64,000 nt of DNA from NCBI GenBank assembly GCA_965285935.1, contig OZ260667.1, forward strand, positions 23,994,001 through 24,058,000. The letters run 5' to 3'. This DNA comes from Ophelia neglecta (lineage: Eukaryota). Every line of letters begins with the position of its first letter. The first letter of the stretch is position 1. Shown here piece by piece: positions 5,106 to 21,843 of this stretch. The position numbers and the translations under genes were made by a program. The notes under the pieces were generated by a model, which made no database searches, was not told the origin of the DNA, and saw only the letters and a program-made list of their open reading frames with translations.

Positions 5106-5812
5106 ATGGCGCTGACTTCTCTACGAGGATCTTTAGTTTGGCTGGTCGTGGTCTTTGTTGGCCTGGCAAAAAATGAGCAGGATAGAGCTCCATATTGCAT
5201 GTACAACGGTAGGTTATAAATAATACTAAATTTAATATCCATTTAGTCAAATTACAGACTGGAATTTAGCAATAAAGTTTAAATATCTGTCATGTGTACA
5301 TGATACCTGCGCTACTTTCTGGCCATAGAAGTCCAGTAAAGGTCAAAAAATTATATAATGAAAGCAACCATATGAACTGGTACATATTTTTTTGCAGAGT
5401 GTCAAATGCGGTAGATGCAAAGTTCATCAGTTTCACCGATATATATATAAATAGATTAAAAATAAACAAATTGTGGTCAAAAACTGTCACCTGATGAATA
5501 GCACAACGATAATATAATAGTGCGGTACGCAAATTGTTCCTGAATAAAGAATTAGGCCTACCTATCGTTTAAGAAGTTATTAGGTTTTTTTCTTGTTATT
5601 CAGGGTGGATTTATCGCGTGGGAGCCTATTGGCGCAGCGAAGATGACCCGTGCCAGATGTGTTACTGCCCGGATCCGGAAGTAGGGTGGACGCCGGCAGA
5701 TCCTTTCCCAGTTCCAGAGTGTATAACGGACACCGTCTGTCCTGAGCCAGGTTGCTATCCCTGGCAGGAACTGGTCCTTCCCGAGAAAACATGCTGTCCT
5801 ATCTGCACGTAG
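5106..5812 (+). CDS. Gene A: secreted single-VWC-domain protein, 2 exons (5106-5208, 5604-5812), ~103 aa
   Basis: Exon 1 MALTSLRGSLVWLVVVFVGLAKNEQDRAPYCMYN-G ends at donor G|gtaggt. A phase-1 acceptor ttattcag| leads to WIYRVGAYWRSEDDPCQMCYCPDP...ECITDTVCPEPGCYP...TCCPICT*. Ten Cys in VWC spacing (CxxCxC, CCPxC). Confidence 0.9.
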
Positions 5813-7232
5813 ACTACTTATAGATGATACTGCGATGCGTCTTCCGTTAAACCTAACCAATCGAACTAAAAAGAAATCTTAGTAGAAATTAATTCTGTCA
5901 GTGACACTTTTACTGTGAGTGGTTTAATTTTTTTTTTTTGGCAAATAAAATTATGTGTTTTTTCTACAGTAGTCAATGCTCATTATGTATTTTCTTTAAG
6001 GAATTGGTGATTACTGGCGAGGGGGTTGAACATTTTTTTGGAGATCGAGGGGGAGGGGGAAATGCGACACCATCAGATGGGGAACATAATTCGCTAAGTG
6101 ATAATGTAGTATTCGTTAAGTGATCATGTAGTATTGGGTGTACAAGTCAATGTGGGAAGTCAGGTGGTACTTTGAATGTTTCCTGGAGTATTCTTTTTTC
6201 GTCCTCCATCGCTTTCTAACTTTGCTCTTTTTTCTAAGGAAAAAAATATGGCATAAAGATTATCTAATTTTTTTCGGATAAGCGGAGTGCCAGCAGAAAG
6301 AGCTAAAATGAGACAACAAGAGACTAAGGAAACAAGGCCCCTGGAGACAACCTAATTTTTATCATGACACAAAATTGATATATCGAAATGAGTTTTATTC
6401 CAAAAACTCAGCACAAACTATCATCGCCAGGACTTGTTTTTGGTAGCCTCTTTCTTCGCCTTAGCAGTATTACCCATATTACGTGAGAAATCAAAGTATG
6501 CCTATACTTTAAAAATGTCATACCACTGTAATTGGGCTCAAAATAGGCATTTTAGACAATTTTTCAGTTTATATGCACTTAAACTGTCACACTTATAACT
6601 CATCCACAGACTTGTTCCTATACTGGAAGCCGCCAGTTGCTATTGAACGTGCATCGGATATGGAGCTAACATCATTCTTGTTTGAGTACATTGTATTTTG
6701 TTCATGTAACACATCCTGACTTCAAAATCCTTATTCTGGTCATGTTATTTCTAAGCAATCAATGTTATTAACATACACTTATAAGATTGTAAAATATTTA
6801 AGTGATACTGGAAATTATACGTAAAACTGATACCATACGAAGAAAAAAAAATAGGCATGATTTGGGCAGTAGTTGGTATTTTATTGTCTTTCAAATTTCT
6901 TTTACAAACACAATTTTATAATACAGATTTAGCACACATTCGATAACAACGAAACTCAGTGTTCATTAGATGATTCATAATGTTGCAAACAAGCCACGTT
7001 ATATTCTATCAGATGTGTATTGACTTTTATAAGCACAAAAAAGTCGTTGACAATTTCTGTAAGCAGTCATTGGATAAAAACACTTATTTAAGGGATAGGC
7101 CTACGGACATTTTGTAATTACATGTAGCCCATTAGAATAACGTGTAAATAGCGCCACTGTGACTTTTCACTGCAGACAGGTCAGCAAATTACCCTTTGGT
7201 CATGTTGGGTAAGTTTGTTCCTCTCTTTTTTA

Positions 7233-7762
7233 TTAAGTGAGGTCAGGGCACACGGAGTTCACCTGGCACACCGGCGACCCCCCGCCGACGGGACAGAAGC
7301 AGGATTGGCAAGGGTCCTTGTTGGGGGTCTTGTGGCCCTCACGGTATATCCATCCTGGAAATGTGTTACCATAATTTTACTTTATTTTAGACATTGATAA
7401 TTGTGGATAAAATTGACATGCGATATGAATTTTTTGGTTGTTCACTGAAAAATGGCCATATACAGGCTTAACTATGCAAATTAAGAAATAACTAATATTT
7501 ATAACATATTTACTTTTTGTCATATTTGCGCCTCCGTCATCAATAGCCGCATAATACCTACATGTATATGACTATAGTACTAATTAGTTTATCGTGTAGA
7601 AGTGCAGGCTAGAAAATAATCTTATAATCGCCTACATTCTATATAAGTTACCTATAACTTACCATCAATGGAGCAAAATTTCGCTCTTGTGGCCGACGCA
7701 GCCTTTACTAGTACCATACTAGACAAAACTATACAAACTAGCGATACTCCTGAAAAATTCAT
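7233..7762 (-). CDS. Gene B: paralog of A truncated after the 6th VWC Cys (exons 7762-7663, 7354-7233); truncated gene or pseudogene
   Basis: MNFSGVSLVCIVLSSMVLVKAASATRAKFCSID-G|gtaagt, then ttccag|WIYREGHKTPNKDPCQSCFCPVGGGSPVCQVNSVCPDLT*. Same phase-1 intron as A. A decayed, frameshifted C-*-P-V-C remnant lies beyond the stop (~7165-7230). Confidence 0.8.
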
Positions 7763-9470
7763 AGTGAAAATCTAGTCGGTCTCCATAAACTAGCATTGAC
7801 CCCTTTCTGTCAAAATTCTCATTGCAACGCTGCCAACTTGATGGTCCTTTATGACACTATTTATTGATATGTCGCTGGCAAATTCTGCAGTATAATGAAG
7901 GGCAATTGATCGTACAAAATAGAGCAGTTAAACTACTTGGTTCTATAACTGCTCCGAAAAGTTCATTATTCATCGGCAGGTGGGGCGGGAACAACAGATT
8001 GCCGACACTCTCCCCCCTACAATGAGTCAAACAGACTCGTGACCTCCAACCCCCATCAACTCTGACCGATGATAGCTCGAGGCCTGCGAAACACATTTCG
8101 GTTATTATGCCGCACATTGATAGTAGTTTTACCTCCTGATAATTGACAATGGGAGCAAAATGATATTGGGGTAAAAAGGGGTCTATTGTTTAATACATGA
8201 GAAAATATATCGCAAACGAAAATTGTTATTATTGACTATGGTGAAAGATGCTGACCCTCCCTGAAAGAGTCCCTATACTGTCTGCCCCCATCCCCCTACT
8301 CTAGTTTGGCCTCCACCCCCACTCCTGTTTTTTTTATAATAAACGTTTCCTTATAGAAATAAAATGCCCCCCTTAATGAATAAATATTTCAGTTCGTTTA
8401 TATGACAAATGCAGCACCACGTACATCGTTCATATTTTCTCTTTATGTCAAGTAGGTTCATAATTAACCTAAGCTTAATCTTTCATTGTATATTCGACTT
8501 AATTATAGAAAACCATATGCAGTTACAGTGTACCATGTGTCATGATCAAATTCGGGAATCTGAACCATTTGCATAGTATAATTGTTATTAATAAAAAACA
8601 ATCTTTGCACACATCACTAGTACTATTTTTCGTGTAATTTTCGAATTCACCCGAATCAGCAGCCACGCTCTGATAAATTCCTAGTCCAACATATACTACA
8701 TCCTACTTATTGTTAGATTTGACAGATCAGAAAACTGCAGAAATTAATCATTGAGATGAAACGTGAATCGTACATGACCTCGTGAATCGTGATACCCTTG
8801 AAACGAACGACACTTTTAAGTGGATTTTCAATATTATTAAGCATTTAAGGAATATTACACTATAGAATTAGGATAACCGAACTTTACTGCAAGTCGATCA
8901 TGATATACAAAAACCTAAAACATACTCTCATGAAGCTGCTAGTATACGGGATGGACATTTGACGCTCGTTGTTCTTTGCCAACAACCTATTTTATTTTCC
9001 ACAATTTGCAAATAACAGATTCGTCAATTTTAATGAAAATTGTGAAAGAAAAAAAATCCAAGTTTCATTCTTTTTCCAAATGTGAATCATGTTCTGAACC
9101 TGACACATACACAGCTTTAATGTAAACCTAGCAATAAATGAAATGATACAGGACAATTTCCTCTGTGTCCGGTTATAAATGTTCAATTTTCATTGAGTGA
9201 TCAAATACTTAGGTGGCAAATTGTTCCGAATTGGTGGCGTTCCATATTGTCGTACATTGTGCATATCCCGTCGTTTATTAAACGTATACAGTGTGTATGA
9301 TTGTGATATTAAATGAACACGTATGCCCAGTGCATGAGCAGAACTTATTTTAATAAACAGTCAAATTATATGCTAACTTTGATATAATCCTAACATTTGT
9401 CGACATTCAGCATTTTGACATCATATATATCAGTTGGGTATCCTGCATTGAACAATTACAAACTTAAATC

Positions 9471-20412: not shown

Positions 20413-20419
20413 TATAAAA
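20413..20419 (+). promoter_or_regulatory. TATA box, gene F
   Basis: TATAAAA ~115 nt upstream of the ATG, at the position equivalent to gene E. Confidence 0.6.
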
Positions 20420-20532
20420 GTGAAAACTTTGCATTGGGTGGTAAATGGAGTAGAGAAGGTCTCGAACAAATATACAAAACTATTACAAGATCTACATTAT
20501 TTAGATAAGCCTAGTGTAGTTCTTTTTTCGCA

Positions 20533-21843
20533 ATGGAGGGTACTCTGGAATTAATATGTCTACTCGTCCTGGTAGGATCTACCATTGCTAAACCTTGGCA
20601 GGAAGAGAAGCGTTCTCAAGGTATTTTGTGGCATTAGTTCATAGTTTATATTTTGGCTAATCATAAGAAGGAAGTAAAATCGTTTTTGCAGAAAACCTGA
20701 ACTCCATCGCATTGCTTAATCTTACATATTTGACCCATCAACTCATATCCGTAATAACAAATTTGGCTATTACGTGCACTGCATAATTTATACTTTTGCT
20801 TAAACATGAATGTTGTCGAAATGCTCGTGCGGGATGTATAATTATCCTGGTATGTGCAGGACGGTATTTTCTTCGAGTATTTTCCATTTGCACATTATTG
20901 TATTAATGATGTTTCAATGTCTCCAGATTTTCACCACAGGCGTGGTCTTGGCCTGAATCCACGGATGTTTGAGACTGCCAAGGGCAAGACAGAGAAACGA
21001 GATGATGTGACATGTGAACTTTTTGGCCAACAATGGCCAACTGGGGAAATTCCCTCTGAAGATCCCTGTCAGGTAATTTCAGTCAATACGATTCGACTTA
21101 TTATTTTAAGCACTAAAATATACACATGACAAAATATACGCCCAACTATAACCCTGAAGTCGTCAGCAGTTCTGCATAATTTCCCACCCGTATTTCCAAC
21201 GAAAAAATACCCAACTTGACGTATACATTTTATATATACATGGGCCGATCGCATTTAGTTTTTTAATATTTTACCATGTTATTTTTAACTTTAATATTTG
21301 TGATTGGAAATAGAATATGTTCCCTTTGTATTCGCATTAAATTCGTTAAACTAAATTCAATAATGTTGCCACACTTCATTTAACTGACTCATTGTTCTAG
21401 GAATGTGAATGTTACGATAGCGGACAGGCAGCGTGTTTCGAAATGTTTTGTACAATATACATATGTAAAGACAATGAGGTGTCGTACAAACCCGAGGGCG
21501 AGTGCTGTGCAAGATGTGTTCCAGCCAACGGTCAGCCTGACATAAAATCTAAAACATTAGCTTGCTTGTTATTAGAAACACTTTGTCGTATATTAGATCT
21601 ATTGAAATGTTTTATACTGCGGATTTATCTGGCGCCATTGAGTACAAAACTAGACACAATTTATGTCAGAAAAGATACAGGTCTATTTTCCCTTATATCA
21701 TATTCGGAAAGGACGTTTACGCTGTGTTACTTAGATAAATGTTTGTTGTGCTTTATTTTCCAGATATTCCCACTATGGCAAAACGCGGCGGGTACGAGAT
21801 AAAACGAGATTTCCCCTTCCTCAAGCGAGGGTTTCCATTCTAA
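20533..21843 (+). CDS. Gene F: tandem paralog of E, 147 aa (exons 20533-20620, 20927-21072, 21401-21530, 21764-21843)
   Basis: MEGTLELICLLVLVGSTIAKPWQEEKRSQDFHHRRGLGLNPRMFETAKGKTEKRDDVTCELFGQQWPTGEIPSEDPCQECECYDSGQAACFEMFCTIYICKDNEVSYKPEGECCARCVPANDIPTMAKRGGYEIKRDFPFLKRGFPF*. Confidence 0.92.

Follow-up and report, generated by a model that had tools for sequence, protein, structure and literature searches.

A cluster of predicted secreted VWC genes in three architectures, most with a paired-basic site before the VWC, in Ophelia neglecta

Single-VWC proteins, VWC2-like proteins of the size of two genes described here (C and D), and expansions of such proteins are already known. Arthropod SVWC proteins (Vago, MdSVWC1) are small VWC-only proteins with eight cysteines, forming an expanded family with immune roles; the housefly has 35 SVWC genes, one of which binds microbes and promotes phagocytosis (PMC11515477, in the part of the text accessible to us). 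Granularin of Lymnaea is an opsonin with a single VWC, as the title of its paper has it. Brorin (VWC2, VWC2L), which carries two VWCs, is an inhibitor of bone morphogenetic protein (BMP) signalling with neural expression in vertebrates (PMC5407822, accessible part). Here, we describe six VWC genes, A to F, at positions 5106-21843 of a 64,000-nucleotide stretch of the 762-Mb genome of Ophelia neglecta (contig OZ260667.1, C12:23994001-24058000; hereafter the window). We favour the explanation that these duplicated genes encode small VWC proteins, predicted to be secreted via hydrophobic N-termini, most of which furin-type or prohormone convertases would trim at a paired-basic site before the VWC; acidic, disulfide-rich VWC mini-proteins would be released and would serve in defence by binding ligands in solution, in the manner of opsonins or cytokines, and C and D would come from the shortening of a brorin-type gene. 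The structural part of this explanation is very probably correct. Secretion, convertase cleavage and the origin of C and D we infer from sequence, and defence-type ligand binding, drawn by analogy, is the likeliest role, which we put forward tentatively.

The gene models come from a reading of window positions 4000-23500, with exons spliced by coordinates, and every intron is GT-AG. They bear out the six genes, three architectures and position proposed in a first-pass annotation of this DNA: A and B have two exons and face each other, C and D join a VWC to a six-cysteine end domain, and E and F hold a VWC within a multi-peptide precursor. Frames are intact in A, C, D, E, and F, and B alone is cut short; identities are 39% for A/B, 37% for C/D, and 70% for E/F. 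Ten cysteines and a CCxxC motif characterize the VWC of the five intact genes, B having six cysteines, and the Cys2-Cys3 spacing is two residues in A, E, and F and three in C and D. The ten VWC cysteines recur in six paralogues outside the window (G, I, J, M, N, and O, see below). A VWC C-terminal motif occurs five times in the window, always inside 5106-21843, compared with none in 98 and one in 2 of 100 Markov shuffles, so this clustering is not due to chance. The Pfam comparison suggested by the first-pass annotation was run on single exons: VWC (PF00093) matched three of the 12 cluster exons at 17.5-21 bits, under the cut-off of 27.6 bits because introns split the domain, and neither SVWC nor Pacifastin_I matched any of the 12. 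The cluster resembles arthropod SVWC genes in being an expanded set of small VWC proteins and differs from them in its ten cysteines and in the missing SVWC match. One more frame, with CCQSC at 35345-35491, was dropped as a VWC because it has neither VWC spacing nor partner exons.

Gene A (plus strand, 103 amino acids (aa)) consists of exon 1 (5106..5208), which was defined by splicing and a hydrophobic core and encodes a signal-like peptide, a short spacer, and the first cysteine, and exon 2 (5604..5812; Pfam VWC 21 bits, E 4e-4), which holds the remainder of the ten-cysteine VWC, a Pro-rich insert, and the stop. Its phase-1 intron lies before WIYR, and that of B, on the minus strand, is placed identically. 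The spliced model of B (73 aa) comprises exon 1 (7663..7762; signal-like peptide, first cysteine) and exon 2 (7233..7354), in which a stop codon at 7235-7233 follows the sixth VWC cysteine; a remnant of the lost VWC end, reading C-stop-P-V-C, lies out of frame at 7172..7186 on the same strand. The stop and the remnant read identically in contigs from three of three sequencing runs, all of one sample, and an assembly error was therefore rejected as the cause; these contigs span introns and are thus uninformative on expression. B keeps a six-cysteine set like that of the C/D end domain and both its exons are open; rather than being a dead gene, it may thus encode a short form that folds. A genome search with A found A alone, missing even B, and a PDB sequence search with A exon 2 gave 0 matches. 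Across gene A (window 5133-5671), the contigs carry at least seven coding differences, at least four of them residue-changing, and the flanks are similarly variable.

Within 364 kb around the window there is one further VWC group, four genes (G, H, I, and J) at C12:23923379-23930917, about 63-70 kb upstream. G, I, and J have two exons encoding a signal-like peptide, a short pro-region, RR or KR, and one VWC, and this type was found only as a trio in a genome search; H is of the C/D type, with the front of its VWC missing. As small single-VWC lophotrochozoan proteins, A and G/I/J are comparable to granularin, beside which they are set by description only; clusters of several genes and pro-regions bearing dibasic sites, both present here, are to our knowledge not known for granularin. 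A 516-aa single-exon open reading frame (ORF) adjoining this group (C12:23916759-23918306) is presumably a secreted non-specific endonuclease-like gene.

C and D have four exons each, intron phases 1,0,1, and 10+6 cysteines. In C, a candidate exon 1 (9471..9537; signal-like peptide, phase 1) precedes exon 2 (9762..9874; RR site, VWC Cys1-4), exon 3 (10274..10352; Cys5-10), and exon 4 (10823..10983), which encodes the six-cysteine end domain; D consists of exon 1 (12787..12862; signal-like peptide), exon 2 (13494..13606; RRRPKKK, Cys1-4), exon 3 (15206..15290; Cys5-10), and exon 4 (15591..15733; end domain), all eight on the plus strand and placed by splicing and sequence. The basic residues noted earlier, VRRG in C and VRRRPKKK in D, stand ahead of the VWC. 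Exon 1 of C is a predicted exon, the best among several candidates, and its end, AAHLQ/GT, matches that of the putative exon 1 in paralogue O (AAHVQ/GT). Adding it gives an open 139-aa frame, and a reading of C as a decayed gene was rejected on this ground; D has an open 138-aa frame and a weak exon-2 donor, with the spacing seen in paralogues N and O. Decay, previously ascribed to two of the six genes, is thus confined to B. Five further C/D-type last exons, at C12:49.126, 49.131, 49.441, 49.955, and 49.959 Mb, mark genes or fragments K to O (C12:49126140-49131422, 49439090-49440824, 49954866-49960229) and bring the type to at least eight copies on chromosome C12. Searches recovered no more than the last one or two exons of K and of L. 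M, N, and O also have KR or RRR before the VWC. The end domain of M has lost Cys2 and Cys6 together, the other four cysteines being invariant, which suggests a Cys2-Cys6 disulfide in this domain. Between C and D lies a repeat resembling a miniature inverted-repeat transposable element (11707-11887; 16-bp terminal inverted repeats starting TA), with a contig depth of ~40,000-90,000 against 10-25. Positions 12960-13160 in intron 1 of D we take to resemble the end of a reverse-transcriptase ORF of a long interspersed nuclear element; contigs of all three runs have 211 other letters in place of 12996-13159.

E and F, each with four exons and 147 aa, are the most novel part of the locus: the VWC is flanked by KR-bounded FPF/YPF peptides, and searches returned no relative. 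Exon 1 (E, 17505..17592; F, 20533..20620; both genes on the plus strand) encodes a signal-like peptide and the start of the pro-region, and exon 2 (17871..18016; 20927..21072) encodes RR, a spacer peptide, KR, and VWC Cys1-2, both as placed by splicing. Exon 3 (18345..18474, Pfam VWC 17.5 bits; 21401..21530, 18.1 bits) holds Cys3-10, and exon 4 (18674..18753; 21764..21843) encodes short peptides bounded by KR, which contain FPF and YPF in E and two copies of FPF in F. Two genome searches found this type only as the pair. The pairing by architecture suggested in the first-pass annotation therefore stands for E/F within the reach of these searches; the C/D type has at least eight copies, the search with A found only A, and pairing in the other types is an effect of the window limits. 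All copy counts are lower bounds because the genome searches score few candidates. A protein search with E exon 3, a single short exon, found no relative, and the one match to an E/F exon 2 profile among 1.84 billion sequences was an unrelated repeat protein and was dropped.

In all ten full models a hydrophobic core lies near the N-terminus and nothing strongly hydrophobic follows it, signal peptides being judged from hydropathy alone. A dibasic site lies at most 12 residues before Cys1 in eight of the ten; by shuffling, such a site is expected at 3-21% per gene and at 6e-4 jointly for three genes drawn from three different subfamilies, and neither of two conserved brorins has one before its VWC. 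We found no description of a family-wide basic site before the VWC, nor of the E/F layout, in the open-access literature. From Cys1 on, the isoelectric points are 4.1-5.9, and cationic antimicrobial peptides were rejected because the mature regions are all acidic. Ratios of nonsynonymous to synonymous substitution rates (dN/dS), estimated by the NG86 method on few codons, are 0.49 for E/F (95% interval 0.30-0.79), 0.17 for G/J (0.08-0.32), and 0.45 for I/J (0.24-0.77). Among the other pairs compared, substitutions approach saturation in A/B and G/I and have reached it in C/D and C/H. Values below 1 indicate that the copies are constrained, not hypervariable. Identity between E and F is 74% in the mature region versus 55% and 71% in the signal and pro-regions; the values for G/J are 75% and 62%.

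A tree of 28 VWC domains (H, K, L, and ten partial matches set aside), including brorin as the first-pass annotation had advised, groups the five C/D-type rows (support 90/92), places A/B with G/I/J (89/86), and leaves E/F apart. The best tree does not unite all 12 in one clade, yet such a clade is not rejected by the approximately unbiased test (p-AU 0.18), nor is one clade of the seven single-VWC rows (p-AU 0.20). There are thus three or four subfamilies, and a single origin of all types is neither shown nor rejected. The earlier proposal of a birth-and-death family holds as far as turnover goes: duplicates of different ages (37-70% identity) under purifying selection occur beside broken or incomplete copies (B broken, H partial, K and L found in part), with further copies elsewhere. 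That all of them form one family is not demonstrated.

The same genome has a conserved brorin/VWC2L-type gene (C8:54279704-54288492) with a signal, two VWCs in one exon, and a VWC2L_C domain; its only database relative found, from Owenia fusiformis, is 46% identical and also has two VWCs. The Atlas places the Owenia brorin with VWC2-like clusters (score 0.92, template-modelling score 0.57), pacifastin clusters being lower look-alikes (0.79-0.80); among the former, a mostly molluscan 133-aa "VWC2L-like" cluster is about the size of C and D, the query having been Owenia brorin, not C or D. Several brorin-layout transcripts are present in the Platynereis secretome (PMC3890597, supplement 8, accessible entries), and no C/D or E/F layout is among the matches listed there. 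A search of the open-access literature for brorin in annelids found none. C and D share with brorin a secreted VWC protein layout and a six-cysteine end domain that starts G-x-N-C behind a phase-1 intron, located at the same place ahead of the domain in C/D and in the C8 gene. They differ in having one full VWC instead of two (for the two-VWC feature, PMC5407822, accessible part), at least eight diverged copies, a dibasic site, and no VWC2L_C match.

A profile of eight C/D-type end domains aligned with the C8/Owenia end domain at an hhalign probability of 79% (E 1.6e-5). None of the last exons examined, those of C, D, H, L, and O, matched Pfam VWC2L_C (PF23331), and a genome search with this profile found the C8 gene at 41 bits and matched no C/D-type end domain. 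The C end domain was modelled with five strands (predicted local distance difference test score 82.7); VIA-align ranked FnI modules first, with a middling score (Z 5.1, root-mean-square deviation 2.5, 45 aligned), and the first half of a VWC would be expected to fold in this FnI-like way. Foldseek with this model gave no match at E<=0.001, and a PDB sequence search with the profile gave four chance-level rows. The VIA-align listing contains no pacifastin or VWC entry, which excludes neither. Pacifastin-like precursors also combine a signal, dibasic sites, and six-cysteine modules of related fold, with the consensus C-x9-12-C-N-x-C-x-C-x2-3-G-x3-6-C-T-x3-C. The cysteine spacings here, 21-23,3,1,9,3 in C, D, and H and 18,2,1,8,5 in B, do not follow that consensus: in the end domains, Cys2 and Cys3 are three residues apart, as are Cys5 and Cys6, and the C-T-x3-C reactive loop is missing. 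By sequence, C and D look like shortened, fast-diverged brorin (VWC2) relatives with one VWC and a six-cysteine, FnI-like end domain.

A defence role was chosen since rapid gene turnover within one lineage, alongside a conserved brorin, is in keeping with the SVWC expansions and granularin; rapid lineage-specific divergence is suggested by the E/F exons, which have no detected relative, next to a brorin whose Owenia relative is 46% identical. Several observations weigh against this choice. Two genes, A and B, are without a dibasic site, and neurosecretory products, too, are typically processed at such sites. No positive selection, often seen in immune effectors, was detected with NG86 on the few codons available. 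Blanks in the homology searches are weak as support for lineage specificity when the queries are single short exons: an exon of the conserved PHTF gene, used as a protein query, found nothing either. The difference between eight cysteines in arthropod SVWC proteins and ten here makes that precedent an analogy only, and C and D resemble brorin, a neural BMP antagonist (PMC5407822, accessible part).

That last resemblance opens the foremost alternative, in which the genes would be brorin-derived modulators of BMP/TGF-beta or other neural secreted regulators, tuning signalling in nerve, growth, or regeneration. The end-domain profile, the shared intron position, and the known activity of brorin speak for it, and a tree joining the C/D-type VWCs with the second VWC of brorin is not rejected (p-AU 0.31). 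However, a separate conserved brorin gene is retained on C8, C and D have a single full VWC and no VWC2L_C match, and at 37% identity these neighbours are unlike a conserved developmental regulator; nothing links A/B, E/F, or G/I/J to brorin. We consider this alternative rather unlikely.

E/F, and perhaps G/I/J, might instead be neuroendocrine prohormones that release DFPF-type and G-Y/F-PF peptides and the GLGLNPR spacer, the VWC serving as a carrier or second ligand. With its signal-like peptide, conserved KR/RR sites, and short repeated peptides, the pair does resemble a neuropeptide prohormone, from which it differs by the whole VWC in its middle. All four dibasic sites of E, each outside the VWC, have counterparts at identical positions in F, where two more are present; the predicted short peptides of both tails end in a repeated FPF or YPF motif, and DFPFI-G-R of E might give an amidated peptide. 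Within the gene, dN/dS is also lowest in the tail (0.24 versus 0.65 for the VWC), though the difference is not significant (Fisher p 0.15). Against this, F does not keep the Gly of E that would serve for amidation, and the tails might be inert pro-peptides. No KRDFP was found in the accessible Platynereis secretome entries (PMC3890597), and literature matches to dfpf, gfpf, and gypf, as far as their text was accessible, are unrelated proteins; no VWC-containing neuropeptide precursor was found in the open-access literature. We regard this possibility as somewhat less probable than brorin-derived signalling. On a par with the latter, and likewise doubtful, is a broader conjecture: E/F would represent a type of prohormone not yet described, from which a whole VWC between convertase sites is released along with FPF/YPF peptides, thereby linking a module that binds growth factors or microbes with peptide signalling; convertase sites would have been gained as brorin-type genes shrank, freeing VWC peptides chromosome-wide, and B may be a working six-cysteine form. 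A single-exon rhodopsin-family G protein-coupled receptor gene (26456-27487, minus strand; 7tm_1 114 bits) lies 4.6 kb downstream of F, and nothing found here connects it with the E/F peptides.

A role in mucus, in tube cement, or in an offensive secretion is very unlikely: the layout of signal, pro-region, basic site, and Cys-rich peptide, with tandem duplication, recalls toxin precursors, but the mature regions are as conserved as the signal and pro-regions or more so, the reverse of the conotoxin pattern, so conotoxin-like hypervariability was rejected and the venom option of the first-pass annotation is weakened. The accessible parts of two venom papers (PMC11359391, PMC10885894) name no small VWC peptide.

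Under the favoured reading, release of VWC mini-proteins for defence, the locus shows that a conserved BMP-regulator scaffold could become families of processed mini-proteins in a lophotrochozoan, parallel to the arthropod SVWC expansions. About a dozen synthesizable peptides are offered for testing the binding of free VWCs, and if E and F do release active short peptides, theirs would be a new prohormone layout. Small multi-exon secreted genes of this kind are easily missed by annotation.

Elsewhere in the window, Pfam matches identify the first exon of a carboxylesterase-family gene (37992-38378, plus strand) and exons of a PHTF1/2 gene (51998-56385, minus strand); an exon at 29938-30300 (plus strand), without Pfam support, we assume to be major facilitator superfamily transporter-like. 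Elsewhere in the genome, an erythrocruorin-linker match (61 bits) and the mitochondrial blocks nad1-nad3-nad2-cox1 and cob-atp6-nad5, in keeping with annelid gene order, suggest together with the Owenia relative of the C8 gene that the host is an annelid. An ORF of ~410-425 aa that carries tandem repeats with cysteines is dispersed in multiple copies and gave weak genome-search matches on C12, C8, and C9. On the mitochondrial contig (C223), with gene names read from ORF starts, nad1-nad3-nad2-cox1 and nad4 lie on one strand and cob-atp6-nad5 on the other; genes on both mitochondrial strands are uncommon for annelids.

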